Below, in pieces: positions 1 to 41,097 of a DNA stretch of 41,097 nucleotides (positions are counted from its first letter, which is position 1; every line of letters starts with the position of its first letter). Where the stretch lies: assembly GCA_964544025.1 (NCBI GenBank), contig CAZJCL010000001.1, positions 1 through 41,097 of the forward strand, read 5' to 3'. The notes beneath the pieces are model-generated. The model had not been told where the DNA came from, made no database searches, and saw only the letters and a list, made by a program, of their open reading frames with translations. Position numbers and translations under genes: made by a program. The stretch is from an uncultured Opitutales bacterium (GTDB lineage: Bacteria; Verrucomicrobiota; Verrucomicrobiia; Opitutales; T3Sed10-336).

Positions 1-3000
1 TTCGAGCTGACGAACGGGACGTTCACGGCGGATATCGCCGGATTGGCGGGAATCGGCGCGGACGACGTTTTTGTTCAATACACGAACGCGGCGACGACGG
101 TGGCGGCGAATCGCGAGATTTCGGTGGGCGGCGTTTCCTATACGTTCACGGACGGGATCGAAGCGGATACGATGGCGTTCGCGGTGACCGGGTTCCGGGC
201 CAATGTGGCGAACTTCGTTTCGCTGGCCGGCGATCTCGGATTCCGGAAGCAAGGGACGGAGATCGTGGCGGTCGGCAACGACATCGACGCCCGCCTGGAA
301 GTGAATTCAGAGGTTTACGCTGCTTTCACACACGCGGATTTCGGTTTGATCGCGGGCAACGGGAAACTCGCTTTCGAGATGAAGAACGGCGAATTCGACG
401 CGAAGCTCGGCGATTTTGCCGGAATTTCCGCCGACAGCGTTTTTGTGCAATTCACGAATGCGACCACGACGGTTGCTGCGGATACGACGATTTCGGTCGG
501 AGAAATTTCTTACACTTTCGCGGATGCGATCGAGGCGAATGTCGTGGTCTTCTCGGTTCAGGGATTCGCGGCGGATTTGGCCGGATTCGTTTCGCTGGCC
601 GGGGATCTCGGTTTCCGCAAGGCCGGGGAAGAACTGGTGGTCGTGGGGAACGCGGTGACGGCGAGGATGGAAGCGGGACCGGTTCTCGTGGAATTGGCGA
701 ACGCGGATTTCGGGTTGATCGCCGGGCGCGCGGAGTTCGCCTTCGAGTTGAAGAACGGCACGTTCAACGCGGCGATCACCGGTCTGGCCGGAATCTCCGC
801 CGACAGCGTTTTTGTGCAATACACGAACGCGACCACGACGGTCGCGGCCGGCCGTCGGATTGCGGCGGGCGAAGTCGAATACACTTTCACGCAAGGGATC
901 GCGGCGAATGTTATCGCGTTCGCGGTGCGCGGATTCGCGGCCGATGTAGCCGGTTTTGTTTCGCTTAGCGGCGATCTCGGATTCCGCCAGGAAGGGACGG
1001 AGATTTTCGCAGTTGGCAATAACCTGACGGCGCGTCTTGAAGCCGGTCCGGTATTCGTGGAGTTGGCGGGTGCGGATTTCGGGTTGGTCGCCGGAGAAAC
1101 AGATTTCGCGTTCGAGCTGAAGAACGGTTCGTTCAACGCGGAAATCGGAAGCCTGGCTGGAGTTACCGCCCAAACCGTTTTTGTCCAATACGCGAACGCG
1201 ACGACGACGGTGAGCGCGGGACGGGAGATCGAGGTCGGCGGTATCGCTTACACTTTTGTGGACGGGGTGGAAGCGGGGATTGTTGCCTTTTCGGTGACCG
1301 GTTTCGCGGCGGATGTGCTGGGCTTTGTTTCGCTGAGCGGCGATCTCGGATTCCGGTTGCAGGGCGAGGAGATTTTGGCGGCGGGCAATAACGTGTCGGC
1401 CAGGTTGGGAGTCGGCGAACTGGTTTACGTGGAATTGGCGAACGCGGATTTCGGATTGCTCGCGGGCGGCGGCAGTTTCGCATTCGAGCTGAAAAACGGC
1501 AGTTTCTCGGCGAAGGTCGGACCGCTCGGAAGCATCACCGCGGCCGACGTTTTCGTGCAGTTCACGAATGCCGCCACCGAAGTTGAAGCCGGTCGCGTGA
1601 TCGATGCCGGGGGTGTGACTTACACCTTCGAGGACGGCATCGAAGCGAACGTGGTGGCCTTTGCGGTCTACGGTTTCAGGGCGGAAGCTCTCGGCTTTGT
1701 TTCCCTCTCCGGCGATCTCGGATTCCGGATGCAGGACGGCGAAATGATCGTCGTCGGCAACAGCGTGACGGCGCGTCTCGGCGCAGGGTCGGTGTATGTG
1801 GAGTTGGCGGACGCGGATTTCGGATTGATCGCGGGATCCTCCTTCGCGTTCGAACTGACGAACGGCAATTTCAATCACTCGCTGTCGGCGTTCAATTTTG
1901 TCACCACGGAGTCGATCATCGTGCAATACACCGACGCGAGCACACGCGTCGAGGCGGGTCGCGAAGTGGCGGTCGGCGGAATTTCCTACACGTTCGAGTC
2001 CGGAATCGAAGCGGACACCATCGCTTTCGGTGTGAAGGGCTTCGCGGCGGATGTGTTCGGCTTCGTTTCGATGGGCGGCGACATCGGTTTCCGCAAGGTG
2101 GGCACAACGATCGAGGCGGTCGGAAACGACGTTTACGCGCGGCTCGGAGCCGGACCGGTTTACGTGGAATTGACGAACGCCAGCTTCGGTTTGGTCAGCG
2201 GGGACAACGATTTCGCGTTTGAAATGAAGGAAGGCAGTTTCGGCGCGGCTTTGGGGCCGCTGGCGAGCGTTTCCGCGGAGGAGGTTTTTGTTCGTTACGC
2301 TTCGGCGGGAACGTCGATTGCGGCGGGCCGCTCGGTCGGGATCGGCGATATCGCTTACACGTTCGAGGAGGCATTCGACGGGGAATTGATGGCGTTCGCG
2401 GTGAAAGGGTTCGCGGCGGATGTGCTCGGATTTGTTTCGCTGAGCGGCGATATCGGTTTCCAGAAAGACGCGAACGGTATCACGGCGGCGGGCAACAATG
2501 TGTCGGCGCGGATGGGGGCCGGACCGGTTTACGTGGAACTGCTCGGTGCCGATTTCGGATTGATTTCGGGAGAGGGTGAATTCGGCTTTGAAATGAAGAA
2601 CGGCAGTTTCGCGGCGGCGTTGGGGCCGCTGGCGAACGTCACCGCCGACAGCGTTTTCATTCAATATACGAACGCGACCACGACGATTGCGGCGGACCGG
2701 CGGATCGACATCGGCGGCGTGGTTTACACCTTCTCCGAAACGATTGCGGCGAATACGATGGCCTTCGCGGTCGAAGGGCTCGCGGCGGATGTGCTCGGTT
2801 TCGTTTCGCTCGGCGGCGATCTCGGATTCCGGAAGCAAGGGAACGATATTCAGGCGGTGGGGAACGATGTGCGGGCGCGGTTGGGCGTGGGCGAGATTGT
2901 TTACGTCGAGTTGACGAACGCGGATTTCGGTTTGATTTCCGGCGCGGGCGGTTTCGGATTTGAGTTGAAGAACGGCACTTTCGACGCGCGGATCGCCGGG

Positions 3001-3900
3001 TTCGCCGGAGTGTCCGCGGATTCGGTGTTCGTGCAATACACGGACGCGGAAACGAGTATCGCGGCCGGGCGGCAAATCGGCGTTGGCGGGATCAGTTACA
3101 CCTTTACCGATGCGATCGCGGCGAACACGGTCGCCTTCGCGGTGACCGGTTTTGCGGCGAACGTGATGGATTTCGTTTCGCTGAGCGGCGATCTCGGGTT
3201 CCGCATGCAAGGGGATTCGATGATCGCGACGGGTCGCGGCGTTTCGGCTCGTTTGGCGGCGGGATCGGTGGCTTACATCGAATTGAGCAACGCCGATTTC
3301 GGATTTATTTCGGGTAACGGAAAATTGGCGTTTGAATTGAAGAACGGCAGCTTCGGCGCGGCGATCGCCGGTTTGGCCGGTGTTTCGGCGGAGGAGGTTT
3401 TCGTTCAATACACGAACGCGACGACTACGGTCGCCGCGGGCGAGACGATTCGGGTAGGCCCGGTTTCCTATACTTTCGAAGCGGGAATCGCGGCGGATAC
3501 GGTGGCTTTCGCGGTGCGCGGACTTTCGACGCAGGTTCTCGGTTTTGTCCATCTTGGCGGCGACATCGGCTTCCGGATGTCCGGAAGCGAGATCGTGGCG
3601 GCCGGTCAGGTGAACGCGGCTCTCGAAGCGGGGTCGGTGGCGCATGTTCGCTTGAACAACGCGGAGTTCGGTTTCCGGGTTTTCGCGGATGGCACGTTCG
3701 CTTTCGAGGTGACGAACGGGGATTTCGAGGCATCGCTCGCCGGAGTGGCCGGGGTGACGGCGACGGGTGTTTATGTCCGTTACAGCAATTCGACCCACGC
3801 GATAGCGGCGAATACGACGGTTTCCATCGGGCCGGTGAGTTATACGTTCGCGAACGGAATCGCGCCGGGCGATTTGGCTTTCGCCGGCACGGTGTCGATG
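1..3900 (+). repeat. Tandem array of 11 in-frame units of 122-124 aa (366-372 nt), unnamed family
   Basis: The FE[LM]KNG motif starts at nt 1, 373, 742, 1111, 1483, 1849, 2218, 2587, 2959, 3331 and 3703. Unit consensus is roughly FELKNGSFxAxxxxLAGVSADSVFVQYTNATTTVAAGRxIxVGGISYTFxxGIEANxxAFAVxGFAADVLGFVSLSGDLGFRxQGxEIxAVGNxVxARLxAGPVYVELxNADFGLIxG. Stretches such as gccgacagcgtttttgtgcaatacacgaacgcgaccacgacgg recur almost unchanged at about nt 430, 800 and 2645. The last unit degenerates near 3890. Confidence 0.9.
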
Positions 3901-6900
3901 AACATCGGCGATTTCCTCTACGTTGACGCGCTCTTCTTCTTCGAGCAGCGGGAAATGTCGGTGACGTTGACCAATGGCAACACGATCACGGTCGACGCCG
4001 TGGTATTCGGCGCGTCGAACATCAATGCTTTCGCCGGTATCAACGGTCGCAGCGCGAGCCGGGTTGGCTTCGCGGTTACCGGCGTCGATTTCGCGCTGAT
4101 GACGATGACCGCGCGGGACGGCACCGGACGGACCTGGACGGCGGTGAAGGCGGAAGTGGAGGAAGTGGCTTTTGTCGGGATTCCGGATTTCTACGTCGGC
4201 GGCAGCGCGAAGATCGAAATGAACATGGCGGCGGCGGACGGCACGCTGGTCGATTTCACCGCGCAAAACGTGAATGTGGCGATCGAGGGAGTTCCGGGCG
4301 GGTTGACCTTCGCGCTTCCGCGTTCGACGGCGACGCTCGTTATCCTGGAAGGCAATTTTAGCCTGAATCTCTTCAATTTCGTCGAGTTCGAAGCGAGCAT
4401 CCGATTGGAGCAAACCTTCCCGACGATGTCGGTGCGCGACGCCGCCGGAAACGTTTCGACGGTGCCGGTCGCGGCGCTTTCGTTCAGCGTCACGGGCATC
4501 GATTATTTCGCCGGAGTCAACGGCATCGGGTTCGAGATCGAGAACGCCAGCTTTGGAATCCTCATCGCGGTCGATCTGACGGATCCGCGCAACGTCTACG
4601 TGGCGGCGGCGGCCTCGGCGGATACGGTCGGTTTCGTCGGCGTGGATATCCTGACGGTGGAAGCGAACAACCTCGATTTGTTCATCAACATCGCGGACCG
4701 GAGCGGCCGGGCGCTCGATTTCTCGCAGAACCCCTACACGTTGCGCGAAGGTTTTGGACTTTCGGGGCCGGGAGTTTCCGGCGGAGCGGGTGGTCCGGGC
4801 GACGGGGTGACGTTGACGATGAGCGGCGCCGGAATCGGTTTGAGCGGCGATCTCACTCTCAATCTCCTCAACGCGATCGTCCTCGAAGGTTCGTTCTCCT
4901 TCCGTTACGGCGACGAGTTGGTGACGCTGTCGGATGGCACGACGGCCTCGGTCGACGCGTTGAGCTTTGTCGGCGAAGAGGTGAGCGCGTTCGCCGGATT
5001 CGGCAAAGGCACGAGCGCGGAATTCGGTTTGAAGGTGGAGGGCTTGACGCTCGGACTCGGGATTTTCACGGACAAGGTGAACACTAGCCGTCAATGGGTT
5101 TCGATCCAGGGAACGGCGGATTTCATCGGGCTGGTGGGCTTGCCGGGTGTCGAGATCAACGCGACCGATCTCGATTTCGCGATGAACACGGCTTCGAATG
5201 ATCTCGTGGTCGATTTCAAGGCGATGAAGGAGGCGGGGACCGGCTTGACCTTTGGCGATCTCGACTTCGAGTTCGATCTGGACGGTTCGCTCGGGGCGAT
5301 GATCAAGTTCTCCAGCGATTTCCACATCGATTTCTTCGGCTTGCTGCAACTGGACGAATCCATTGATCTCGAACTGAAGCTGCACACGGTGAAGGTTTGG
5401 GATCCGACGACAAACCAGTTGGTGGACGAGGACGTGGTTTATTTCTCGATCGCCTACACCGGGATGGACATTTTCGCCGGGGCGAATCGCGGTACGGATA
5501 GCGAAGTCGGCCTGCGGATCGACGATCTGAGTTTTGCCGCCGCGCTGTTGTTCAGTCCTTCGAGCGGGTCGGTTTGGGTAACGGTTCAGGGAAGTAGCGA
5601 TTTCGCGGGACTCGTCGGAATTCCCGGATTCTCGCTCCAGGTGGACAACGTGAAGGTGGCGATCAACCTGCCGGATGCCGACGGACGGATGATCCATTAC
5701 GATGAAGCGACGGGCGGCAAGGCGTTGACTCTTCCGACCGGTATCGGCAGCAGTCTGCTTACCGGCGGAATCGGCGGAACGGGCGACACCTTCACCATTG
5801 ATCTGGATGGAAAGAGCGGTTCGGCGGCGGTGATCGAATTGAACGGGGCGTTGCTGGCAATCGATGGATTCCTCCACATCAGCGGCAATCTCGCGTTCAC
5901 GATGGGGATGGACGTGCATCTCGAGGTGAGCGGTTTGCCGCCGGTTATCAGCGGCTCCAAGACTTTCAATACGATCACGCTCGGCGGGTCGGATATTAAC
6001 GTCTTCGTCGGGTTCAACGGGCCGTATTTCGGGGTGGGGGATCCGGGCGACGCGACCGGTCTCTACGTGCGGAACGCCAGCTTCGGCATCGCGCTTTTCT
6101 CGCAGGACAAGAGCTCGGGCAGCGAGGGAATCAAGGCGCAGGCGGTGCGCGTGGATGTGGAGGAAGCGGCGTTGGTCGGTTTCGGCGATGTGCTCACGGC
6201 GCGTTTGGAGGGAGTGACGATCGCTTTCAACGGAGGTTCGGAGAAGAGCGGTTTGTCGAAGCCGTATATCGACTTTGTGCAGAATTTCGGTCCAGGCGGT
6301 TACGAGGTGAACGCGGGCAACGGAAACGTGAAGGTCCTCGATTTCGATTCGCCGTTCATCGGGGCGCGGGTGGAATACGCGGAGTTGCAGGTTTCGGAGT
6401 TCCTGATTTTGCAGGGCTCGATCGCCTTCACCAAGGGCCAGCGGATGGAGATGGTTTCGGTCAATCCCGGCTTGTTGGCGGATTTCGGAGTGCCGGAGTT
6501 GCGGCACGATATCGAGATCATGACGATCGGCGGCGCGAATCTGAACGGGTTCGCGGGAATCGGCGGCGCGATGGCGGCGGATGGGACGATCGATCTGACG
6601 AACGCGATCGGACTCAGTATCCAGGATGTCAATTTCGGCATCGCGATCATGACGGCCAGCGGCATGGCCGGAGTTCAGGTGCCGGGAATGGCCCAGGCGC
6701 TTCCGAAATACATCGCGGCGAAGGCGAGCATCGGGTTCGCGGGCCTTGTCGGTCTGGAAGGAATTCTCGAAGCGGAGGTTCACGATGTGGAAGTGAACAT
6801 CAACACCGGGATGATCCCGGGTCTGCCGCCGCCGCTCATGCTTCTGCCGATGCCGCACATCGATCTGATTTCAGTCTTCGGTCCGGACGGTCTCGTGGTG

Positions 6901-9900
6901 GATACGGGCGACGACGCCAATCCGGTTCACCTTGATTTCTCGGGGGAAATCATCCAGGCGAAGATCGGTTACCTCGAAGGCAATCTCGCGGGTATCGTCC
7001 AATTAAGTGGATCGATGGCGTTCACGAAACGCGGGGCGGAGGAGATCACGTTGAGCGACGGTACGACGAGAACCGTGACGTCTCTCGCGATCGGCATCAC
7101 CAACGTTTACGGGTTCATCGGAATCGGCGGTTATTGGCAGGACAGCGACGGCGACGGACGGATCACGCCGGCGGATTCGCCAAATACGAGCGCGTTCGGC
7201 GTGGCCATCGAGAATCTGAATGTGGGCGTGGCGGTGATGCTGGATCTGGATCCGGCCGATCCGGCGGTTTATTTCGCGGCGCAGGCGGATTTGACGATGG
7301 CGGGACTCGTCGGGATCGACGGAGTGACGTTGGAAGCGACGAGTTTCTCGCTCAGCCTGAATCAGGCGGTGAGCGGTTCGTTTGCGGTGGTCGATTTTAC
7401 GGCTTACGAAGCGGGTTATTACGCGATCGAGACGGGCGACCCGCTGAATCCGATCAAGATCGATTTCGACGCCCGGTTGCTGCGGATCGCGGGCGCGGTC
7501 GAGATCGATCTTTTCGGCATCCTGGTTGCGGATGGCGTGATCGAGCTGAAGCTGACGGACGAGGAATTCTCACTCTTCATCGACGCGTCGGCGCGGATCG
7601 GCACGGGCGGTTTCTATTTCAATACCAACGTCCAGGGATTGCTGGTCGTGAACTCGGGTGGAGTCGCGCTGTCATTCACGGTTTCCGATACGTCGATCGC
7701 ATTGGGTTCCGCTCTTGTGCTGACGGTCGAGTGGCTGGACTTGGTCATGAATACCACAGGGGAAACGGTGGTTTACGATGTGCCGGAGGAATTCCAGGCC
7801 CGGGTCGGAGAAGCGACCGTGACCATTTTGAACACTCCGCCGGGGAAAACGGAGCCGGTGCAGTTCTATCTTTCCCTCCACGGCGAAGGCAGCCTGAGCA
7901 TTTTCGACGGGATGCTGTCGTTGAACGGAACACTTGGCATCCTGATCGCGGACGACGAGATGGTGTTGACCGTGGGCGCGATAATCGAATTGCCGGGATT
8001 GAATTCTCTCGGTGCGGCGGGCACGCTCGGTTTCACGGCGGACGGGCTGTATGGCAGCCTCCAAGTGGGCGCGCCGGGAGCGCTGATTATCGGAAGTTCG
8101 TCGAGCGCGTTCTCGGTCGGGGGCACGATTATCATCCAGATCAACACGACCGGAAGCGCGCAACAGGTCACAACACTGACTGTTGATAATCAGACGGGGC
8201 AGGTGAACGGTTTCGAGAATACCAGCATCGCCGCGCACAGCCTTTACATTCTCGTGGCCGGGACGGTCCAGGTCGCCGGTTTTGTGAATATCAACGGGCG
8301 GATTGAGATCCTGATCGATCCGGACGGATTCCGCCTCGAAATGGACGCATCGACCGAAATCGGTGGTTTCGGGCGGATCGCGGTCATCGGCGGCGCGATT
8401 ATCACCAGCAGCGGGGACTTGGTGATTCTGCTCGATTTGTCGGCCCGGGTTTCGCTCGGACCGGTGACGATCGATGGCCAATTTACGTTGTCGATCAACA
8501 CCGGGTCGCAGGCTCGCACGATCGGGACGCGGACCATTGCCGGAAACAGTTTCTTCATCAAAGTGCGGGCGGAGGTATCGATCCTGCTATTCAAGGGCGT
8601 CGGCGACCTGACCATCCGCAGCGAGGGAGGCATCTTCGAAGTCCGGATCGATCAACTCTCGATCAATTTCTTCAACATCCTCCAGATCCGGATCAACGGG
8701 TTCTTCCGGTCGGACGGACAGTTCCTGGTGCGGGGAACCGTCTCCTTCGATATTCCGCTCGGGCCGTTCGTTCTTTACGGAGGGGTGAGCGTGGAATTCA
8801 GCAACAACGGATTCGCCGGCGAGATCTGGGGCGGTGTTCGCTTCTCGATCAACCTGGGGCTATTCAAAATCCGTTTCAACCTCGCCTCCATCGAAGCGGT
8901 CGTGAGGATTACCCAAGTGTCGGCCAACGCCAGCCTGACGATCCGCGTGGCGGGCATCTCGATGCGCGGATCCCTCTCGTGGTCGTGGGGACCGCCGCCG
9001 GTTCTCGCTTCCCAATCCGGGGGCACCCTGACGTTGAATACGGGACCGCGCGCGCACCATCGCGGCAACCTTTACAAGGACATCGTCGAGGAATCCTACT
9101 CGATCACGCAGCAAGGCAACAAAACGATCGTCAGCGGCCTGGGTTACCGTCAGGAGTTCACCGGCGTCACGCACATCGTGGCCGACATGGGCGACGGAGA
9201 CGATTTCCTCTATATCGACGAGAACGTGACCTCCTCCGCCGATATCCGGGGCGGCAACGGAAACGACGTCCTGATCTACTCCGGCCAATCCTCCGCGACC
9301 ATCAGCGACGGTTCCGGCAACAACACGATTTACGGCGGCTCGGGCACCACGACGATCACCGGCGGCTCGGGGAACGACACGATCTATGCCGGATCCGGAA
9401 ACACCACCATTTACGGTACGGCTGGCGCGAACCTTATCTACGGCGGGTCCGGGACGAACACGATCTTCGGCGGCACGGGTAACGACCGAATCTACGGCGG
9501 CGAGGGAGTGAACGTCATCGACCTCCGCCTCGGCGGCGACAACTACGTCGAAGGCGGTCCGTCGAACGACATCATCCGCGGCGGTTTCGGCAACGACACG
9601 ATTTACGGGATGGGCGGCGACGACCAGATCTTCGGCGGCGGCGGCAACAACAAGATTTACGGCGGCACGGGCAACGACACCATTTTCGCCAACTGGGGCA
9701 CGGGAACCGGGGCCGGCGCGGCCTATGCGGCTCTGCCGTCCGACCGCGGCACGGCGGGGAACAACTGGATCGATGGCGAAGCCGGCAACGACTTCATCTT
9801 CGGCGGCACCGGAAACGACACCATCTACGGCGGCGACGGCAACGACACCATCCAAGGCGTCACGGGCAACAACTGGCTCGTCGGCGGGCTCGGCGACGAC

Positions 9901-27900: not shown

Positions 27901-30900
27901 CTTAGCTCGATCGGCATCAAGCTCATCGGGCCGACTGGCATCGCGGTCCAGCTGTTCAATTCTGACAAGCTTTCCGGCAATTCGCTCGGCAGTGCGCTTC
28001 GAGCGATCACGTTCGACGACGAGGCTCTTCTCGCCGCGATAGATGGTTCGGCTCCCTATAGTGGTTCGTTCCGCCCAGCCGGTTCGCTCTCCGCTTTCGA
28101 TTTGCTCGATCCGAATGGCAACTGGCATCTCGAAATCACCGATGCCACCGGCGCAATTTCCGGGCTCGTCGAATCGTGGTCGCTCGATTTCGCGTTCGCT
28201 CCGGCCGACGCGGAAGCGCTGAAGGTCTCGGTGGCGGGCGATGTGAACGGCGACGGTCTGGAGGATCTCGGCTTCGTGATCCGCGCTTTCCAAGGTGAAA
28301 CCCAGAATCCGTCGAAGGGTCGCGCGTTTATTCTCCCGGGTCAGTATCTGCCGAACAACAGCGGGGGAGGGCGCCTCCTGGTTTCGACCGGCGGCATCGT
28401 CAACGGGGCCACCATCGCCGATATCATCACTTTCGGCGGCAGTGCGAACGGCCTCGCCGCCGCGGTTCTGGAAATTGGCGGATTGAACAACAACATCCTC
28501 TTCCGCGCGAAGAACGTCGGCAATGCCGGCAATGACTACCACAACGGTTACCGGATTCTCCTCAAATACAACGGCGCGCAACTCGAAGGAGTGCTCGTCT
28601 CCTCGACCGCCTCGAGCCTTACCATCACGATCCGCGACGATCAGGTGACGGCCAACGACGTCCTCAGCGCGATCGCCAGCAGCGTGCATGCCTCCTCCTT
28701 CCGCTCGCATTTCGAAGCCAGTCTTTACGCCGAGTCGCAGGCGCGCCTCTACTCCGATTCGATTTGGCAGGCTACCGATACCTCTATCGGCGGGCGGATC
28801 CAGCCGTTGGGCGACATCGATAAGGATGGGGCTGAAGATTTCGCGATTGTCCGCTTCCGGGAAGATTCCGGCAGCGCGTTGGGCGGCGTGCTCGTTTTCA
28901 AGGGTTCGGCGAATTGGCGCCTAGCCGGCGTGGCCGCGATCGACGCCTCCGACAACGCGTTCCTCCGGCTCCTCCAGGCGAGCGCAGGCGAGTTCGGTTC
29001 CACCTCGATCATCAGCGATCTCGTTGTCACCGCGGGCGATTTCAACGGCGACGGGCGGATCGACCTCGTCGTCGGCCGTCCGGATTTCATCCGCGTGACG
29101 GGACAGAATGACGATTATAATCCGGAAACGGACATCCTGGCCGGCAGCACCCGCGGCAGCGTCTTCATCTTCTTCTCCGTCGCAAGTCGCACGCAGGTCA
29201 ACATGCAGTTGCGCCAAGCCAATCTCATCATTGAAGGGCAGGGGGAAACCGACCGCTTCGGCACGTTGGCGCTCACGCCGAACCTCGATTTCGACCAGGA
29301 TGGTCTCAGCGATCTCACCATCGGGGCCGCGACCGCGAACGGCTCTATCGGCGGGACGCGCGTCGAGGCAGGCCGTCTCTATCTGATTTACGGTGCCCGC
29401 ACGATCGAGGCTCTCCCGCAAGTCGACTTCGACATCCTGACCAACCGTTCGGTCGCTGGCGCGGGCAGTTTCCTGGTCGACACGGGAATCGGCCGTCCGG
29501 ATGTTTTCTACGACGCGGATCTCGACGGCGACGGCGTTCTCGACAGCACACGTTACACGCTCCTGCCGGGCGAGGCGGGCAAGTGGTATCGGTTTACGAC
29601 ATTGGGCGACGGCGCGCTCGGCACGATGATCCGTCTTTCGCCGATTGGTGGCGTGAGCGCCGAGTCGATCGTTTCCGGTCACTCGGGCGTCCTGAAGAAA
29701 GAAGGTAGCGTTTACACCATCGAACTCGGTGGCAGCGCCCTTGAACTGCAAAATCCGGACGATCAGGCGATCATCGAGTTCGATCTCTCCGCTTACCTCG
29801 GCATTCTCGACAATCCGAACACTTTGAAACGCGTTACCCTGCGTCTGGCGGGGGTTTCGGGCGGCGATGTCGTCCTGCCGGACGGAATCTCCTCCATGAT
29901 CGAGATGGCGGACCGGCTCTACTTCGTTTCCCGCGCCGCCGATGGATCGCATTCGCTTTGGATGAGCGACGGCACCGCTTTCGGCACGAGCCAGATCCGC
30001 GAACTTGGCGGCACGCCGGTTCAACTCCTGGAGCGCGGAGGGCGCCTGTTTGTCGTGCAACAATTCGCGGAGCCGACGCGGTTCGAGATTCGCGTGCTGA
30101 ACGAATCCGGCACCGATCTGGTTCTTGTTCACGATAACCTGAGTCATGCGCCATCCGCGATCGCGGCTGCGGCCAACACGATATATTTCATCAGCAACGG
30201 CATCCTCCACCACAAATCCGGCTCGGCCGCCGCGACGCCTGTCGCTTCCGCTTCCGGTCCGGTGGTCAACGCCCGCAACGTGGTTCTCGCCGGCACCGAC
30301 TTCTTCGCCGTCGGTCAGAACCAAGTCTGGCGGCTTTCGGGAGCCAGCGCCTCCGCCGTCGAACGGACGGATGATTTCCGCGAGACGCGTGAACTGAGTT
30401 TCGCCGGAAAATACGCCTTCTTCGTCGCGCCCTACGAAAACGTCAACCGCGTCTGGGCGGTTGATCTCGACGCCGGGGAAGGCATCGCCAAGGTGGTTCG
30501 TTCCGGCACCAACGGATTCCTGAACGGAATCGAGGAAATCGTTGCGGTGGGCAATCGTATTTATCTGCTCGGTACTGGCTCGTCCGGCAGCGATAAACTC
30601 TGGATTTTCGACGGCGATACTTTCTCGATAACGGCGGCGCCTGGCGATCTAACCGATCCATCCAGCCTGACGCCGATGCCTGACGGCCGTTTGGCGGTGG
30701 TGTCCGATGGCAATCGGATCGTCATCTTCAATCCGGCAACTCCGGCCTCGGCACCGCTGGTTGTCCAAGTGTCCGACGTAAGCGAGATCACGGAACTTAC
30801 TCCATTCGCGAATCTTTTCGGGACCGGAAAAGTCGGGTTCCTGTTCTCGGCGAAGACCACCGCCTCTGGAGCGGAGCCGTGGAAACTGACCTTCGGCGGA

Positions 30901-33900
30901 GACGGCACTCCCGCATTTGCGATGGTAGAAGATGTCGATACCGGGACCGACCCGTCCTCTCCCGCCGGCTTCACGTTATTCAACGGCGAAATCTATTTCG
31001 CGGCCGACGATGGAGTGACTGGCAGAGAGCTTTGGAAGATCGCTTCCGATGGCACTTCCGCCTCGCTCGCCCTCGATGCCAATCCCGGCGCGCCCGACGG
31101 AAATCCGGCTGATTTCCTCGTCCACGACGGAAAGCTCCACTTCGTGGCCGACGACGGCCAAGGCCGGCGGATCTTCATCTACAGCGGACCGGTCAATAGC
31201 ATCAGAATCGATCCAGGTGCGAACAACGCGCTCGTATTCAGCCATTCCGCGATGACCGAAGGCACCACGGTCATCCTGCAGCTGGCTCAGGTTTCGACGG
31301 CCCCGGATGCTCCAGACGTGAGCGCCACTTTCTCGGGCAACACCCTCACCGTATTCGTGACGGGCGAGGCGACAGCCAACGATGTCGTCGCCTACTTCGA
31401 GAGTTCGGAGGCGCCGGACGGTTGGAACGTGGAAGTCGAAGGCCAGAACGGAAACGGCCGTATCCTGGCGGGCCGCGTGGTTCTGGCGGGGGGCTCCGTT
31501 GGCACGTCCGCGTATCGCGATATTTCCTTCCCGACGCTCTCGGAGGACTACGTATCCATTCGCTTGAGTAATCTCCCCGGTACGACGACCCCGTTTGATC
31601 TTAACGAACTGACGGTTGTTCTTCGCGTCGCGACCGGCACGTGGGCCCGCTACTCGCAACAACCGTATCAAGCCCGGGCGGAATTCGACGCCGTGACCAA
31701 GACTCTAACGATCGATTACAAGCCGGGCGTGACAACGATGGGCGACATCGCCCGCGCGATCGGCACGGAGGTACTTCCAAACGGAGCGGTGCCGCTGAGA
31801 GCGGAGGTAGTCGGACCGGCCGCGAATGGGTTCAATCCGTTCCCGTTCATTGAGATCACGGCGAATGGCAACGGAAACGCGGTGCAGATTCCATTCGGCG
31901 GATCCATTCTCAGTTTCACGAAAACCGGGAACTCGGTGAGATACATCGAAATCCTTCCATCCACCGACCTGTCCACTGGAGAAAACGCTCACGCGACCTT
32001 CAGCGCTGCCACGGGCGTTGTCACGATTCGGATTCGCAACGGCGTCGCCACCGCGAGCGACGTTGTAGCCGAGGTGAACGGGTTGAGCGGCGCGAATGTC
32101 ACGGCGGCGGCCTCCGGTATTTCCGGTTTGGCCCTCACGGTTCCGGCACCGCTGAGCACGATCGGCGGAACGTTCACCGGCGGGGTCGGCGGCGAATTCG
32201 CCGAAACGACGCTGAATATCGGCGGCGACTCCATCGTTATCACCTCGGCCGCGACGGGAAATATCACCAATCTCTTCCGGCTGGTGGCGGCGGTCGTTGA
32301 TGGCGATGGCGCACCGCTGATGACGTCGGCTCCGGTAAAGGTTATCCGTCATGCGAACGGAAGCTATACGATCTATGCATTGCCTGGAGTCGCTGAGGTC
32401 GGCGATGTCATTTCCGCGCTGAACGCCTTCCGGGTTGAAGGTGCGGCGATGTTCACGGCGGTTGCGGGGACGGGCACGGATGCAGACTCGGTTCTCGATC
32501 TTCCGTTTACCGAGCTCGAGGGAGGCGTGAATTATGTCGCCAACCAAGGAACGTTCACCATCGCCGGACATAACTTCACGTTAACGGCGGTGGGAGCCGC
32601 GAAATTGCCGAGCCACACACCGCGCCTGGTGTTCGATTTGATGGATGGCGACGCCTCCGCCATGGCGAGTATTTCCGGCAACATCCTCACGCTTCGTCTG
32701 CGGGCGCACGGGCAGACCGCGACAACGGTGAAGAATGTTTTGGACGCGTTGGATGGCCTGCCCAACTTCAACGCCGCGACCAGCGCCACCCATTCGACGG
32801 CCATCACCGCTCCGGAAGCGACTTATACTTACACTGGACAATTCGTCATCGGCAGTCACACGTTCACTTTTGCTTACACCGGCTCAGGAACGCCGTTTAA
32901 GACTCATACTCCGTCGATACTCTCCAATCTTGATGGTGCGACCCTTGTCGAAGTGGATATCCATAATTCGTCTCTTCGAGTCCGGATGCACGAGGACGAC
33001 GCGGTTACGGTGGGAGCATTGCTGACGGCACTCAATTCTCTCGGCGGATACACGGTCACGACGACAGCGGACACCTCGGAGAACGTGAGCAAGAACGCCG
33101 CCCCGTCGTTCACCCAGAAGGCGACGGTCAACATCGACGGAAAGGTCTTCCACCTCGAACACGGCTCGTCCGTTGGCGGCATCCGCAACCACACCCCGAT
33201 CGTTTCGTTCAACCGTTCCGGAAGCGACACCCCGCCGGCGACGGCGATGCTCATCGGCGCGACCTTGGCCGTGAACCTTCGCATCAGCGGGACTACCGCC
33301 GCGACGGCCGCCCAAGTGGATACCGCGCTCGATGGCTTGTCCGGTATTTCCTCCTCCACCTCCGCCACCGGTTCCCTCGCATCGCCATCCACCGGTTATA
33401 CGGAAACCGTCGGAGGGAACGCGGCCGTGGCGGCGAGCGGCGAGATCGTTTTCGGTTCGAAAACACTGACGATCACCGCGTCGACGGCCGGAATAGGGGC
33501 AAACGACCTGCGCGTCATTCTTGTTGGCAACGGGCGTAAGGCCGATGACACGGGCGTTCTTTCCGGCGATACCGCCAGCGCGGGTTGGAACGCGGTGACG
33601 AAAACGCTGACCGTCCACTTCGTTCCGGGTGTCACGACGTTCGCCAAGATCGTGAGCGCGATCAACGGAGCCGGCGCGGGCGTTACCGCTTCCTACAGCG
33701 ACAACGCCAGCGATATCGTGCGGCACTTCTCCTCCAGTTTCTCCGGCGGCGTGGACGCCGTTGCGGCCAAGGCAACCATTGCGCTGCCGGACGGACGGGT
33801 GATTACCGTCAGCGGTTCCGCGACCGACGGAGCCAATCACAACGGGAAGTCCTTCTCCATCGTTAGCGGAACCTCGGCGGGCATTTCCGAATCGGGCGGC

Positions 33901-36900
33901 AATTTCGTCCTGACCGTTCTCATCAATTCCACGAAGCTCGCCGACATCAACGCATTGCTCGGTGATGATCACGACCTGACCGCGACGGTTTCCGTCGATT
34001 CGTCGGCACCGCTCTGGAATGCCATGGAGGATGTTCAATCCGCCACTCCGGGCACCGAATCCTCGGTAGAGCTCCGTGCGCCGGGGCCGAAAAATGATAT
34101 CCTCATCCGCGCAACCGGCGCTTACAACGGCTACACTGTCCGCTACGACGTCGGGGCCGTTGGTGAATCACCAGAGGTGCAAATCGATCTTCCCGGGCGT
34201 GTAATTGTGATCGAGATCGAATTCGGAGTCACGACGGCCGCGCAGATCGTCGCCGCGTTGAACGCCGTCGACAATATCGAGGCCGAGCTTCTGGTGGAGA
34301 GCGGCGATACGGGCATCCACGACGGCAGCGGTAAGGTCAATGTTGGACCGGGCCGGGCGGGCGGCGTGCCTTCCATCGCGCTGAACGGTTATTCGAATCC
34401 GCGCAGCCTCTTTATCCTCGGCGGAACGATTCATTTCGTGGCCGACGCGCCGGGAGGCACGAAGATCTGGAAGTTGAACGGTTTATCCGCCGCCGATACC
34501 GGAATAGCGTTGGAGGACGCGAGCCTCTTCTCGGTGGCCGAAGATCGCATTTTCTACATCAGCGCCTCGCATCGTCACCTCGGTTCTTACGCGAACGGAG
34601 TCGACTCCACACTTGATGAAACGGTGATCGACGCGATTCTCGCGGTGGATGGCGACCGAGTCGTAGTTCGCACTGCCACCGGATCGATCCGGATGTTGGA
34701 CGTCAGCGGCGATGTGACCGTTATCGGGCGGAAGTTGCCATGGGGCGCGATGGGTGAATCCATCGCTCATAATGGAGGTTTGGTGGCCATTGAGCGCGGC
34801 GAGATTTCCGACATCCTCTGGCGCATCGACGAAAATGGAGCGACCAAGCTGCTCGAATCGGGAGTGGGCAACCGTTTAGGACAACTCTTCTCGGCCGGAC
34901 CGGGAAATCCGCTCTTCTATGTGGAGTCAGCGATCGGTGCCCAGATCGTTCCGACTCTTTACGCACTCGGCAACGCCGCCGGTTCGACACCGTCGCTTGT
35001 CCGGCCAGGTGCGGGAGGCGATCGTTTCGAGTGGTTCACGGTAATTGGCGACGAACTCGCGTTCATCCATCGAGCCTCCGGTTCGGAGGGCCTTTACAAA
35101 ACCTCGCTCGCTACACCCGGAACGGCGGATGCGGTGGCCAATCTCGCCGGAACGGCTTCGGATTTGACGGCTGTCGGCGGAACGCTCTACTTCCGCCTCG
35201 GCAACGCCCGCGGCACGGCGCTCTGGCAGAGCAATTTGACTCTCTCTGGCACCCAGCGCCTGATGCGCGACGGATCGCCGGTCTCGGATCCAGTGGCCCT
35301 CGCGGGGCTGAACGGCCGCCTTTATTTCGCGGCCAGCCTGGATGGTGTCGCGGGTGCCTTCTGGCGTGTCGATGACGATTCGCTCGATCCCGTGGCCCGG
35401 CCGCTGGTGGAATTCGTGGACGCGAGCGTTCCGGCCCTGAAGGTTTCGATCCTGCATGGCGCGGGCGACGGTGTGGTGAACGCGGCGGATGCTGGCCGCG
35501 ACTCGACACTCGTCCTCAACACCGTGAAGAACGACAACTACACCGAGGTGGACGTCACGGAATTGATCCGCTCGTTGCTCGAATCTGGCATCATGCGCGC
35601 CACCTTCCGTTTGGAACTGCCGGATAGCGTGACGACGTCGCTGGCCGAACCGGTGAAGCTCGCGCACGCTTACAACGGAACCTCCCTCCACGTCGTTACC
35701 GGCGAAAGCGATGTGGTGACCGGCTCGCTCTACTCGGTCGACGGCCGCTTGATCCAGTCCGGCCAGCCGGTCATCGATCTGAGTCAACTTCCGGCGGGCA
35801 CCTATTTCCTCCGCGTGAACGGCCCGACCGATGGCATTTCACTGGAAAACCGGGGCACGGTCGACGAACCGACCGATGGCGGCTCGATCGGCACGGCCAA
35901 GGACTACACCTATTATCTGACCGGCGGTGAACTCTGGCGGACGAACGGATCCTTAATCGCGCCTGTGCGCTTCTCGGACGGTTCGGCTGTTACCGGCGCG
36001 ACGATGGTCGGCGGAAGCGGCGACAGTTTCTACTTCACCCTGAAGAACGCGGGAATCGTGTCGCTCTGGCAGATCACGGGGCAGTTCGCCGCGAAGGTTG
36101 CGGACCTTTCCGGAACCGTGGACGACGCGACCGGAGTGGGCGGGAAACTGATTTTCCGGGTTGGCGCTGTTCTCTACGCGGCCGATCCGGAAGGGATCGA
36201 GACGCTCGAAGATTTCGGAGGCACGGAGATCGGAGAACTTTCTTCCGCGGCGGGACGCGCCCTGTTCCTCGTCGATGGAAAATGGTTCGTTTCGGACGGT
36301 TCAGCGGCGGGGACGCGCGCTCTCGACGCGGTGAGCGCGGGCGAGCGGGATGCCGAATCGGTGGTGGCCATGAACGGCATGCTGTTCTACCTCGTCGAAA
36401 GCGGCGGGAAGTTGACTCTCTGGCGGGCCACGCCGGGCGAGGACGATGGATTTGGAGCCGAACCGCTGAAGGTCGCCGCTTTGTCGGCCGTCACCGGCGC
36501 GACCGGAACTCTCTTGGGTGTCGCGAACGGGCGTCTAATCTTTACTGTTACGACCGCCGCGGGCGTTCAACTTTGGAGCAGCAACGGCCTTGGGGATCCG
36601 GTTCTGAACCTGGGTGGCGGTCAAACAGGTGGAACGGAGAAGGTGGCGGATCTCGGCGGGGCCGCACGTTTCGTCGATACGCGCGACGGCCGCCTCTTCT
36701 TCACCGTGACGACGGTCGACGGCATGGCTCTGTGGTCAACCCGCGGAACGTCGGATTCCACCAGAATGGAAGTCGCCTCGCTGCCGGGCCCGGTCGAAGG
36801 ACACGCGGTATTGAACGGGGTAACCTACTTCATCGCCGGAGCGAGCAATAGTCGCATGCTCTGGAAAATGACGGATGATGGCGTGGAACTCGTCACGTTC

Positions 36901-39900
36901 CTCAACAGCGGCGCGGCGAATCTGACCGCGGCGGGCGGATACCTGGCGTTCAGCGCGATTTACAGCGGCGAACTCGGCAGCGGTCCTTCGCTCTGGGTGA
37001 GCGACGGCACGGCGGATGGCACGCGGATGGTGATCGATCTTTCGCCGGTGAATCCGGGGACGATCTCCGGCATCGCTCACACCGGCAACGGAATCGCCTT
37101 CATCGTCAAGAATGAGGATGCGATCGTGGAAGGGCTGATCGATTACAGCCTCTGGATTTCGAACGGATATCGCGACGGCACCTATCCGGTTCTGAGCGGC
37201 AATGCCGGCACCTTGCCGTTCGGCAGAGACGGCGGCACCGATCCGACCGCGCCGGAGTTCCTCCGCACGGTGGGCGAAGTTTCCTTCTACCATTTCGACG
37301 GACGGATCATCGCGACCGACGGCACGGTGAAGGGGACAAGAGTCATTGCCGGCAGCGACCTCGCTCCGATTACGCCGGCGGAGACGCTCGAAAGCAACGG
37401 ACGTCTGGTCATCCGCACCGTTGAAGGTGGTCTCTGGATCAGCGAAGGGAATCTGGTCGGCCTGCCGTTCCAGATCGAAGTCAAAGCTCCGTTGCCCGGC
37501 ATCATGCATCCGGGAAGCGACCGTGACATCATCAACGGCGGCGAAGGGGACGACATTCTGATCGGCAACGCGGACCACGACATGATCTTCGGCGGCGGCG
37601 GCACCAACTTCTTCGTTGCCGAAAACAAGGAGATCCGCGATCTGCAACCGCACGAAAACTACGTTCTTCCGCCGACGGCGGAGTTCAGCGTGCAGCAGCC
37701 GCGCCCGGCCGATGTCGAGGTCCACATTCCGGACCTTGCCCTGCGTGCCGGCATCGCCCGCGCCCTCGGCATCCCGGTCACACTCGGCTTCGACGGGAAT
37801 CCGGTCATTCATGGCAAGATCATGGCGAGCGCGATGGCGACGCTGGTCGAATTGCAACTGAACAACCTTGGCATCCAGAGTGTCGTGGGCCTTCACTTCG
37901 CCCGCAACCTGAAGGTGCTCAACCTGAACGACAACCGGATCTCCGATCTCTCGATTCTGGTGCCGGCGACCGATCCGGTGACCGGCGCGCAGACGGGCTT
38001 GTCGAATCTCCGCGTTCTCAGCCTCGCGAACAACGGAATGGGAGTGCTCAGTTTCGATGGCGAGGATGATTACGTCGACGTGGAGGCGGATATTTCGGAA
38101 ATCCAAATGACGGTGACCTTCTGGTTCCGCACCGACGCGGCCGGCAAGGCGATGGGACTCTTCTCAATGGACAACGGCGTGCTCGGCTCGGGCGGCCTCG
38201 ACCGGAGCATTTTCCTCACGGCGGACGGCAGAATCGGAGCTTTCCTCTACACCGGAGCCGGAAATTACGACACGATCCTCAGCAACGTGCTTAATCTCGC
38301 CGACGGCAAATGGCATCATGTCGCTTATGTCTTCGGCGCGGATGGAGCCGGAACGGCGCAGCGGGTCTATGTAGATGGCATGGAGGTAGCGCGGGGAACG
38401 GCCACTTCGTCGAGCCTCTCCATTCAGGACGGGCTCAACATCGGTTTCGCCCAGGATCAAAACGGCGATCCGGTCTTCTTCAAGGGCGAGATGGACGAGG
38501 TGCGTATCTGGGATACCGTCTTTAGTCAGGATCTGGTGCGGGCGGACATGGTGCAGCCGTATGCCGCTGAGCGCGTTTATCTCGTGGGTTACTGGAGCTT
38601 CGACGGCCCCCAGACCGGTTTCGTTACCGACCACTCGCTCTTTGGACGCAACGGCGTTCTCGGCGGAGGCAATGTCGAAATGGCGCCGACCCGCATCCGC
38701 ATGTTGCCCGATCCGAATCTCCGGCCGGATCCGAATCTCGGCGACCTCGATTCGGCGGACACGCTCTTCCCGACGATCATCCGCGACTTGCAACGCTTGA
38801 ACAAGCCCGGCCCGCTTGAGCGCCTCAACCTAGCGTTCACCTATGTCGATTTGCTCGATCCACTGAGCGCGCTGACGGAACTCCGTTACATCGACCTCAC
38901 CGGCACGATCACTTCAGTGGAAAGCACGTTGGGCGAGATTGTGGACCACACCGATCCGGAAACTGGCGGTTCCACGCTTGTCGAGTTCAAGGACGGAACG
39001 CGCATCACGGTCGAGCAGGATGTGAGTCTCGTGCTGAGCGCCGGCACTTGGGCCTGGCGTCGCATCGAAGTCGGCGGCGGCACCGACGGGGACGAGCATT
39101 TCACACTCGAAATCGTGATTGTCGGAAACATGCATTTCCTCCGCGTAAGCGCGTTCGGCATCACTGAAGATTTCGACATCACGGAGTATTACAATTCCAC
39201 GACGGATTCTTACGATATGCAGGTCGTGTTCGACGGCGGCTACGGCGACGACTCGCTGACGATTATCGGCGAACTTCCGATGACCGTTTACGCGGCTGGC
39301 GGCGAGGGCGACGATCTGCTGATGGGCGGCAGCCATCAGAGCTTCCTCTTCGGCGGCGAGGGCAACGACACCCTGATCGCGAATGGTGGCCAGACGGTGA
39401 TGAGCGGCGGACGCGGCGACGATATTTATCGATTCTCCGGCGAGTGGGGGACGGCGATCGTCAACGAAAGCACGGACGCGGGCCGCGACACCCTCGATTT
39501 CTCCGATGTGACCGCCGACCTGGCGATCAACGTTCGCGGGATTTCGCAAACCGTCGACGGAAACAACACGGTGAACCATCTGATCAACACGGTGGAAAAC
39601 TTCATCGGCGGTCAGGGCAACGACATGTTGAACCTGCACCGGGCGGAAGGCGGCACTGTCGAGTTGGGTGGAAGCTGGCTGCGTTGGGATGGCGTCACGA
39701 TCACTCACTCGGACATCGAGGGAATCGATGTCAGCTTCATGAACGGTTCGCAGCAATTGACGGGCGTCATCCGCGTGCTGGAGGATCTCGATTACACCGG
39801 TCGCGATCTTCGCCTCGAAGCGCGTTCGATTGACATCCGGGCTTCCATCAAAGCCGGTGGACTTTCGCTCCGGTCGAACACTATTTTGGCCATCGATCAG

Positions 39901-40662: not shown

Positions 40663-40705
40663 TTATGCCAAAGAATTTCCCGGATCTTTCCGGACCAATG
40701 TCGGC

Positions 40706-40740
40706 AATAACGGAAGGTTTCTGTCAAACCGCCGTTATTT
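40706..40740 (+). terminator. Candidate intrinsic terminator hairpin 44 nt after the giant-gene stop
   Basis: AATAACGG-aa-GGTTT-ctgtc-AAACC-g-CCGTTATT gives 13 paired bases in two stem segments with a 5-nt loop, ending in TTATTT. The stem is AT-rich and interrupted and the T-tract is short, so this is a weak call. Confidence 0.35.
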
Positions 40741-40842
40741 CCCGTATTCATACAAATTTTACTTGAATCCGGCGATTTTCCACCTTCTAACATTCCGTTG
40801 CTAATACTTTCCCCGATTTTCTCCGGGTACACCTGTCCTTCA
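40741..40842 (+). promoter_or_regulatory. AT-richer intergenic spacer, probable promoter/5'-UTR region for the downstream gene (no specific boxes called)
   Basis: Composition drops sharply relative to the flanking GC-rich coding DNA (ttcatacaaattttacttgaatcc...ctaatactttcc). Weak candidates are TTGAAT (40763-40768) with TAACAT (40788-40793) at 19-nt spacing, and TAATAC (40802-40807). No Shine-Dalgarno sequence lies before ATG 40843. Confidence 0.25.
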
Positions 40843-41097
40843 ATGTCCAATCTCTCCAAACAAACTTTCCGAGTGGAAGTTTTGGAATCCCGTATTTTGC
40901 TGTCCGCCACACCAGTGGACGGCGGAGCGGGAGGAGAGGACGCGTTCGCGCCCGAGATCGAAGAGGCGGCGATGCAGATCGAGGAACCGGCGGAGTATTG
41001 CGAAATCGCCGCCGACGAGCCGAAGGAGGACCTTTATTGCGGCGGGGCGGCCCTCGGTTTCGATACCGGGGATGATGTTCTCGGTCCGCAAGACGAG
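40843..41097 (+). CDS. 3'-partial gene encoding a protein with an LEPR-XLL-like N-terminal motif (probable second very large secreted/surface protein)
   Basis: From ATG 40843 the frame is open to the window edge (85 codons): MSNLSKQTFRVEVLESRILLSATPVDGGAGGEDAFAPEIEEAAMQIEEPAEYCEIAADEPKEDLYCGGAALGFDTGDDVLGPQDE. The F.VE.LE.R.LLSA motif is followed by an acidic low-complexity linker. Third positions return to G/C bias after the AT-rich spacer. The ORF track misses this gene because it has no stop in the window. Confidence 0.7.
   Translation, partial: MSNLSKQTFRVEVLESRILLSATPVDGGAGGEDAFAPEIEEAAMQIEEPAEYCEIAADEPKEDLYCGGAALGFDTGDDVLGPQDE

Follow-up and report, generated by a model that had tools for sequence, protein, structure and literature searches.

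A 13,553-codon, 5'-truncated RTX-type gene of an Opitutales bacterium and its place in a conserved tandem pair of giant genes

The locus and the integrity of gene 1

The window analysed here, a stretch of 41,097 nucleotides (nt) from contig CAZJCL010000001.1 (assembly GCA_964544025.1) of an uncultured Opitutales bacterium, contains a giant open reading frame (ORF), termed gene 1, and the start of a second giant gene, termed gene 2. Frame +1 shows no stop codon between nt 1 and 40659, a run of 13,553 codons, and closes with TGA at 40660-40662. It has no start codon inside the window and runs off the 5' end, indicating that gene 1 continues upstream. This agrees with the original prediction of one frame open for 40.6 kb, with at least 13,553 codons and an upstream continuation. 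The two genes and the spacer between them are arranged as follows.

1..40662, + strand: gene 1, 5'-truncated giant ORF, 13,553 codons plus TGA
40663..40842, no strand: spacer between gene 1 and gene 2, 180 nt, AT-richer (GC 0.44)
40843..41097, + strand: gene 2, start of the second giant gene, ATG at 40843, N-terminus MSNLSKQTFRVEVLESRILLSA, cut at the 3' end of the window

Gene 1 is genuine and forms one single gene. Base composition gives each codon a 0.031 probability of being a stop, and the chance of 13,553 codons staying open is ~1e-185. The GC content at the three codon positions is 0.61/0.46/0.76, and that of the third position (GC3) varies only between 0.71 and 0.83 across the fourteen 3-kb bins. 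No exact DNA repeat in the window exceeds 29 nt, and DNA identity among the tandem repeats reaches 69% at most, the only long DNA repeats being 372-nt units at the 5' end. Over the whole frame, the GC3 bins and the DNA repeat analysis revealed no compositional seam, chimeric join or collapse-prone repeat. In addition, colinear homologues extend along the protein (relatives' loci are labeled L0xx and relatives' proteins P0xxx in this analysis), namely L016, L017 and L018 (residues 1-3231), P0152 (3006-6869), P0147 (5775-6536), P0188 (6782-10226), P0182 (7005-9369) and L012 (9595-13551). Together, these homologues bridge every junction of the gene 1 architecture. The listed database proteins do not exceed ~8,000 residues, so that orthologous giants appear only as fragments and their absence there is no sign of rarity.

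Moreover, the gene 1 product contains no cysteine in 13,553 residues, as compared with ~255 expected from positional base composition. Cysteine is also absent from ~22,700 residues of gene 1 orthologue fragments (L006-L012), and gene 2 fragments contain 0-1 cysteine. This absence throughout points to selection along the entire length of gene 1, and the open orthologous ORFs carried by independent assemblies likewise argue for a real frame maintained by selection. An assembly artefact, a chimera or a decaying pseudogene mimicking one gene could be suspected from the break of the contig within a tandem repeat and from the proneness of giant repetitive ORFs to misassembly. The uniform GC3, the divergence of the DNA repeats, the negligible chance of such an open frame, the independent colinear homologues and the lack of cysteine all speak against this explanation, which we consider exceedingly improbable.

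On the opposite strand, an ORF of 2,183 residues at 307-6858 faces modA and modB, the repeat arrays at the 5' end. It was rejected as a gene, because its codon-position GC (0.76/0.45/0.60) reverses the pattern of the coding frame and identifies it as a shadow ORF. The independent metagenome contigs L014, L016 and L022 start within the modA array, as the window does, and the 5' truncation of the window is therefore probably an assembly break in the 372-nt repeat. The genome, metagenome and viral contigs searched do not include the source contig, as an exact 40-mer taken at position 1 of the window matched none of them.

Gene 1 and gene 2 form a conserved tandem pair of giants, with gene 1 in first position. 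Gene 2 passes the NCBIfam LEPR-XLL model NF012209 with 22.4 bits against a cut-off of 17, the motif being located at 40867-40920. The C-terminal domain of gene 1 has four metagenome homologues (53-58% identical), and a genome scan with this domain, using one genome per species, yielded seven loci. They belong to Thalassobacterium sedimentorum SDUM461004 (Puniceicoccales; NZ_JARXIC010000019.1), two Opitutales metagenome-assembled genomes (MAGs; one contig is JAFIGG010000003.1), two Puniceicoccaceae MAGs and two Kiritimatiellia MAGs. Read over 10-kb flanks, all seven loci show the same arrangement. The gene 1 ORF occupies the full upstream flank and ends with the same C-terminal domain, and a second ORF, located 4-150 nt downstream, begins with FxxEgLExRILLS and occupies the full downstream flank. 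An independent-assembly check had been proposed with the original prediction, and these seven orthologous ORFs, each open across the whole flank, bear out the continuity of the frame. The same gene pair is present on the Joint Genome Institute (JGI) metagenome contig L002, where direct reading shows the LEPR-XLL start of gene 2.

Over the last 2,000-2,900 residues, the gene 1 orthologues align colinearly at 44-55% identity, and the gene 2 orthologues are 38-69% identical among themselves. Judged by these comparisons, the closest relatives of gene 1 are found in Puniceicoccales/Opitutales (Verrucomicrobiota) and in Kiritimatiellia. Within the 40663-40842 spacer, a promoter/terminator scan gave nothing above shuffles, and an Rfam search of the whole window returned no match.

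Modular architecture of the gene 1 product

The domain map was built from hidden Markov model iteration on the gene 1 protein itself, together with Pfam and NCBIfam searches of protein tiles. From N- to C-terminus, gene 1 encodes an all-beta stalk of modA and modB, a 2,400-residue RTX beta-roll rod, modC spacers, and binding domains in the C-terminal third. The elements are listed below, with residue numbers in brackets.

1..4062 (1-1354), + strand: modA, 11 tandem copies of a 124-residue all-beta repeat, 45-65% identical to copy 1
3880..7470 (1294-2490), + strand: modB, seven copies of a 150-190-residue beta repeat, distant kin of modA
7471..9117 (2491-3039), + strand: non-repeated beta-rich stretch, colinear with L016, L017 and L018
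9118..16440 (3040-5480), + strand: RTX mega-block, dozens of Ca2+-binding nonapeptide units, broken by short inserts and one modE copy
17407..23382 (5803-7794), + strand: central spacer region with modC, small RTX islands and two PPC-like copies
17407-18693, 19402-20346, 21646-21894 and 23101-23382, + strand: modC, nine copies of ~100 residues
23578..25800 (~7860-8600), + strand: FG-GAP (integrin-alpha-type) Ca2+-binding propeller repeats, with a beta domain without family inserted at residues ~8010-8230
26341..26691 (8781-8897), + strand: PA14 domain, nearest solved kin the carbohydrate-sensing PA14 of Clostridium RsgI3 (E 9e-42)
26818..28197 (8940-9399), + strand: four tandem proprotein-convertase P-domains, without an S8 protease domain alongside
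28213..29550 (~9405-9850), + strand: second FG-GAP region, including one modE copy
29911..31200 (~9971-10400), + strand: ELWxxDGT repeat (propeller-like) region 1
31558..34305 (10520-11435), + strand: modD/modE array, modules of ~85-95 residues, 8 of the 10 copies
34348..37440 (~11450-12480), + strand: ELWxxDGT repeat region 2
37513..38535, + strand: RTX island (12505-12537), leucine-rich repeats (LRR) and Laminin_G_3
37840-38034 (12614-12678), + strand: LRR_4 leucine-rich repeats
38056-38535 (12686-12845), + strand: Laminin_G_3 / concanavalin-like lectin domain
39166..39510 (13056-13178), + strand: last RTX block, resembling the terminal beta-roll of Serratia lipase LipA and CyaA block V
39478..40659 (13160-13553), + strand: conserved ~390-residue C-terminal domain ending in FLGW, 53-60% identical in four metagenome proteins and seven genomes

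The RTX repeats are recognised with high significance, HemolysinCabind reaching E 1.6e-123 in one 1,000-residue tile. Most folds that had been named from the letters (RTX, FG-GAP, PA14, four P-domains, ELWxxDGT, LRR_4 and Laminin_G_3) are confirmed by the tiled Pfam and NCBIfam searches. The exception is the PPC-like assignment, as the copies at 20428-20901 stay below threshold (21.4 bits against a cut-off of 25.9). The two modE copies outside the main array are located at residues 5184 and 9487, and modD/modE modules also occur in gene 2 orthologues. The modules modC, modD and modE have a similar '...DLVxxLNxAL...' helix motif in common. A weak Flagellin_IN motif match (E 0.01) lies at residues ~5505-5540 (window 16318-16980).

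At least five further module families of gene 1 are without a Pfam, NCBIfam or PDB match; at least three families had been left unnamed in the original prediction. Profile searches of the PDB gave no match for modA, modB or the C-terminal domain, and modA and the C-terminal domain are also without a Pfam match. In a PDB sequence search of the non-RTX parts, only the beta-rolls of serralysins, CyaA and LipA, and the RsgI3 PA14, were matched. The sole match of the stretch at residues 2491-3039 is a sub-threshold one to Pfam T2SSN (E 1.2e-3; window 7438-9135, residues 2480-3045).

An AlphaFold2 model of residues 1111-1760, which span the modA-modB transition, has a predicted local distance difference test score (pLDDT) of 76.8 and a predicted template-modelling score (pTM) of 0.72. 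The model is all-beta and composed of long antiparallel strands, many of 12-22 residues. Its weak Foldseek matches are long antiparallel beta-sheet proteins, including LptD, ApoB, chorein-N and outer-membrane barrels. Together with the weak T2SSN match, they hint at a long beta-sheet or groove fold in modA-modB and in residues 2491-3039.

The visible gene 1 product has a mass of at least 1,407 kDa and a pI of 4.35, with 1,576 acidic and 749 basic residues. No transmembrane (TM) helix was found in it; only two windows exceed 1.9 in Kyte-Doolittle hydropathy over 19 residues, and neither is helix-like. As predicted, the visible part of gene 1 showed no enzymatic signature. The HExxH motif occurs nowhere in the 13,553 residues, and searches of Pfam, NCBIfam and PDB sequences, including Pfam at E<=1 on every unassigned stretch, detected no enzymatic family. 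Among the Pfam and NCBIfam tiles, no Big or cadherin family reaches threshold.

Several known classes were considered and rejected. An RTX pore-forming toxin of the HlyA/CyaA type is not indicated, since NF033943 scores at most 234 bits against a cut-off of 1000, in the repeat region only, and TM-like segments are lacking. A serralysin-type metalloprotease was dismissed for want of HExxH, the matches being confined to the beta-roll (serralysin chain residues 279-388). As to cargo of the type IX secretion system, the sole Por_Secre_tail match is sub-threshold (22.8 against 23 bits) and lies at residues ~11892-11942, ~1,600 residues before the C-terminus. An Omnitrophota-type giant was rejected as well, with no SecA family match in any tile and no TM helices in the visible 13,553 residues.

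SwmB of marine Synechococcus is a 1.12-MDa surface protein, and SapC is part of the Campylobacter fetus type I S-layer secretion operon. The giant, repetitive and Ca2+-binding character of the gene 1 product, as well as the link of SapC to S-layer export in C. fetus, would fit a structural surface coat or motility component, like SwmB or an S-layer-type sheath, instead of a ligand-binding adhesin. However, lectin-type and propeller binding domains crowd the C-terminal third, and no homology to SwmB was seen, no search aimed at it having been made. We regard a coat or motility role as decidedly unlikely.

Kinship with LEPR-XLL giants and their neighbouring export genes

Gene 1 is no orphan; its unnamed modules are shared, and colinear, with annotated LEPR-XLL giant proteins. 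Proteins of this class are mentioned in the literature for Vibrio sp. VB16, whose ~8,000-residue protein combines an LEPR-XLL motif at the N-terminus with RTX and serralysin-like parts at the C-terminus (PMC10868602), and for Limnohabitans (WP_104798714; PMC9611531). Our literature search found LEPR-XLL mentioned in these two papers, in both only in passing, and did not find an experimental characterisation of any member.

The modB region gives partial-protein matches only, at 24-38% identity and from many phyla, several of them annotated as LEPR-XLL or 'beta strand repeat-containing'. The order in modB homologues is LEPR-XLL, ~300 residues, modA and modB, and the modA/modB homologues P0002, P0004, P0005, L015 and L018 begin with LEPR-XLL. 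A metagenome scan with the modA alignment returned 12 loci. Particularly, L017/L018 are colinear with residues 1-3183 of the window (41% identity over 1,800 residues), start with LEPR-XLL and contain ~2,200 residues before modA; L015 is similar. If gene 1 resembles them there, its total length would exceed 15,500 residues. The order modA, modB, unique region and RTX is common to gene 1 and L017/L018 (41% over residues 1449-3183) and is also seen in P0004, P0005 and L015. In L005, seven tandem genes of 162 residues each (169-3735) are located on the opposite strand, upstream of the modB-containing P0017.

A modC profile searched against 1.84 billion representatives retrieved 768 proteins, mostly with multiple copies, in proteins of 4,000-8,000 residues. 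A basic stretch followed by LExRxLL was found within the first 120 residues in 58 of the best 150 of these 768 matches, and in 31 of the 50 among them with at least 4,000 residues. The shared colinear modules suggest, as the best explanation, that gene 1 belongs to the LEPR-XLL giant-protein class; its own N-terminus is located outside the window.

Beside the LEPR-XLL genes of relatives, two kinds of export-related genes recur. A SapC gene is positioned directly upstream in L001 (Arcobacter), L004 and L017, and a SecA-like paralogue of ~663-683 residues is positioned directly upstream in L015, L018 and L023. The SecA-like paralogue contains SecA_DEAD, PP_bind and P-loop domains and reaches ~600 bits against a SecA cut-off of 800. 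Its match covers only positions 4-606 of the 789-position SecA model, indicating that the paralogue lacks the C-terminal part with scaffold and wing. The gene before the SecA-like one in L015 and L023 encodes an M50-like protein joined to an adaptor-like half; in L023, a GAF-adaptor gene also precedes it. The giant genes of L017 and L018 are 98.6% identical from nt 1756 on, and the genes upstream of them differ, being a divergent SapC in L017 and the SecA-like paralogue in L018.

A search with the SecA paralogue revealed a large and tight family, the best 120 matches being 63-93% identical and nearly all 633-680 residues long. Three of three distinct SecA-paralogue loci (L025/26, L027/28 and L029) keep one operon order. 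It comprises a TolC-like outer-membrane efflux protein (552 residues), a short adaptor/membrane fusion protein (~290), a GAF-adaptor (~620), an M50-like protein (718) and the SecA-like protein (663), and it ends in the LEPR-XLL gene, which begins with ...FE(L/M)ExLE(P/Q)R(I/V)LLSG. In L027 (JGI 3300027690, Ga0209164_1000184), the LEPR-XLL gene directly after the export operon, from 14992 onward, has a called product of 25,214 residues. P0226, a complete LEPR-XLL protein of 4,158 residues picked from the modC list only, is directly followed by genes for DUF3467, GAF-adaptor, M50-like, SecA_DEAD and adaptor proteins. Three further picks from this list gave DUF3467 only (P0203), nothing (P0254), and an uninformative upstream side alone (P0230).

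The ~663-residue SecA paralogue, read in L025, retains GEGKS and DEAD, and neither motif was found in the 551-residue SecA_DEAD protein of L030. The M50-like proteins (L025 7845-9998; L027 7848-10001; L030 22015-24102) retain HEFGH or HELGH and possess 4-5 TM-like segments and an adaptor-like C-terminal half; their best NCBIfam match is a leader-cleaving intramembrane protease of ribosomally synthesised and post-translationally modified peptides. A DUF3467 protein of 110-121 residues (the pair is 58% identical) is encoded right after each of two unrelated LEPR-XLL giants, at L030 19667-20032 and L031 24407-24739, and has no relative in the PDB. No description of a separate SecA-like/M50/adaptor/TolC operon beside LEPR-XLL genes was found in our literature search.

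The type I secretion neighbourhood expected at the outset did not appear. The relatives show either SapC or the TolC-like/adaptor/M50-like/SecA-like operon, and no ABC transporter occurs in any of their neighbourhoods read.

The SapC/TolC-like theme of the relatives matches the Cag_662-665 locus of Chlorobium chlorochromatii, and gene 1 combines a conserved tandem pairing with many folds of cell-surface recognition (PA14, LamG, LRR and propellers). These features would suit a contact-dependent interaction or transfer device, with the giant pair reaching and then entering or gripping a partner or prey cell, as reported for Cag_663/Cag_665, rather than a passive adhesin. On the other side, the searches of the 13,553 residues yielded no domain of a toxin, effector, peptidase or pore-former and no haemagglutinin-type repeats. 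Such a device is an unlikely reading of the locus.

Proposed nature of the gene 1 product and comparison with known giants

Taken together, the gene 1 product is probably an exported, Ca2+-stiffened fibre or adhesin of the LEPR-XLL class, encoded in a tandem giant pair. The fibre or adhesin part of the original prediction stands as the most reasonable reading. Its other part, an apparatus encoded as a single polypeptide, does not, with a giant LEPR-XLL gene lying 180 nt downstream and the pair present in seven PVC-group (Planctomycetes-Verrucomicrobia-Chlamydiae) genomes. The polypeptide would be exported unfolded, which the absence of cysteine and membrane segments fits, and would fold and stiffen outside the cell on Ca2+ binding. 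It may then form a surface fibre of great length, on which the lectin and propeller domains of the C-terminal third would bind glycans or other cells. Unfolded export, Ca2+-dependent folding outside the cell and an extended fibre are drawn from knowledge of RTX proteins (PMC6891781, PMC7493085 and PMC5550230).

The route of export is suggested by the relatives. There, a TolC-like channel and periplasmic adaptors could form an envelope-spanning duct, which would be fed by the dedicated truncated SecA paralogue in place of a type I ABC transporter. A possible targeting signal is the basic N-terminus with the FxxExLExRxLLS motif, and the M50 intramembrane protease-adaptor fusion, whose HExxH is intact, possibly cleaves this LEPR-XLL signal. 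As a tentative proposal, both giants could be substrates of an undescribed export machine composed of the truncated SecA, the M50-adaptor, two adaptors (one of them with GAF) and the TolC-like channel, with the LEPR-XLL leader as a targeting and possibly a cleavage signal; this route would be distinct from types I to XI. If so, an export machine occurring in several phyla would explain the exit of LEPR-XLL giants, and perhaps that of the SecA-bearing Omnitrophota giants.

The classical route of type I RTX adhesins such as LapA and MpIBP is a serious rival for the gene 1 product, although we consider it doubtful. According to it, a C-terminal uncleaved signal would direct the protein through ABC-HlyD-TolC, the C-terminus would emerge first, and the N-terminus would plug TolC, thereby anchoring the fibre. 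RTX repeats occur throughout gene 1, with the last block just before the C-terminus and similar to the LipA/CyaA beta-rolls, and the product is acidic and cysteine-free. Moreover, SapC adjoins three relatives, and a sapC/tolC pairing also flanks the C. chlorochromatii giants. The layout furthermore fits the plan of MpIBP, with a stalk followed by ligand-binding domains (PMC5550230). In contrast, the ATPase recurring in the relatives' neighbourhoods is SecA-like and not of the ABC type, and what defines the family is a motif conserved at the N-terminus, needless for a system with a C-terminal signal. In addition, ~390 conserved residues follow the last RTX block, and BIg (bacterial immunoglobulin-like) or cadherin extender domains are lacking.

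Several observations weigh against the proposed LEPR-XLL fibre and its SecA-fed export. The last RTX block (residues 13056-13178) lies near the C-terminus and is followed by the conserved 390-residue domain ending in FLGW, an arrangement also typical of a classical type I signal at the C-terminus. Of 11 LEPR-XLL loci selected independently of SecA, only four have a SecA-like gene within 10 kb and three have SapC; L021, L031, L033 and L034 have neither. As the window starts inside gene 1 and the flanks reach 10 kb, an LEPR-XLL start ahead of the gene 1 modules, like the export genes, is seen only in relatives outside this lineage. Foldseek comparison of the modA-modB model with the PDB and BFVD gave no relative (best E ~1e-3, template-modelling score at most 0.18). 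The suggested structure prediction was productive for residues 1111-1760 and not for the C-terminal domain, the model of which was discarded at a pLDDT of 40. Finally, the function of gene 1, be it adhesion or contact-dependent transfer, is inferred.

Gene 1 is an unusually large new form of RTX-type giant surface proteins, within the annotated but unstudied LEPR-XLL class. Bacterial genes of more than 10,000 codons are rare and mostly unstudied. The gene itself will not astonish a specialist, and its interest comes from the giant pair in a cultured relative and from the recurrent SecA-like/TolC-like linkage. The pair is also present in the cultured T. sedimentorum SDUM461004, which opens its expression, export and function to experiment. 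The linkage of LEPR-XLL genes to a SecA-like ATPase, an M50-adaptor, adaptors and a TolC-like channel provides a concrete hypothesis for moving a polypeptide of at least 1.4 MDa across two membranes. Gene 1 additionally supplies at least five module families without a Pfam entry or solved structure.

Compared with the LEPR-XLL giants (NF012209, 'LEPR-8K'), gene 1 is likewise giant, RTX-rich and cysteine-poor and contains modA, modB and modC in the same order, whereas the gene 1 fragment is already ~1.7 times their typical length. Its C-terminal third and the tandem pairing, unlike other LEPR-XLL giants, are limited to Puniceicoccales, Opitutales and Kiritimatiellia in our scans.

The type I RTX adhesins, including Marinomonas primoryensis MpIBP (1.5 MDa), Pseudomonas LapA and Vibrio FrhA, are similarly of megadalton size, stiffened by Ca2+ and without a catalytic domain, with RTX repeats after the binding domains of the C-terminal third. 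They differ from gene 1 in that its stalk is built from novel beta modules and not from BIg repeats, and its RTX part forms a 2,400-residue central rod and not a terminal block alone. The signal of the LEPR-XLL family is moreover N-terminal, and relatives adjoin a SecA-like ATPase and not an ABC transporter.

In C. chlorochromatii, sapC precedes Cag_663/Cag_665 and a tolC-like gene lies between them; both giants are reportedly expressed and passed on to the partner cell (bioRxiv 10.64898/2026.03.19.712371). Cag_663 and Cag_665 (36,806 and 20,647 residues) resemble the present pair, by description, in being tandem giants with a SapC/TolC-like theme (here in relatives) and no recognised conventional signal. 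Gene 1 and gene 2, in contrast, are parted only by the 180-nt spacer and not by a TolC-like gene.

Genes of at least 10,000 residues have been reported in Verrucomicrobiota (West-Roberts et al., bioRxiv 10.1101/2023.11.21.568195). The same work describes Omnitrophota giants into which divergent SecA_DEAD/PP_bind units devoid of scaffold and wing are fused, and proposes that these units take part in the export of the giant itself. The LEPR-XLL loci likewise link a divergent SecA_DEAD/PP_bind unit without scaffold and wing to giant proteins. The large antiparallel beta structures reported for Omnitrophota giants can also be likened, by description, to the all-beta model of the gene 1 stalk with its long antiparallel strands. 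Unlike these giants, which have a fused SecA, many TM helices and catalytic domains, the 13,553 residues of gene 1 contain no SecA, TM segment or enzyme, and relatives encode the SecA paralogue by a gene of its own, within an operon that also includes TolC-like and adaptor genes.

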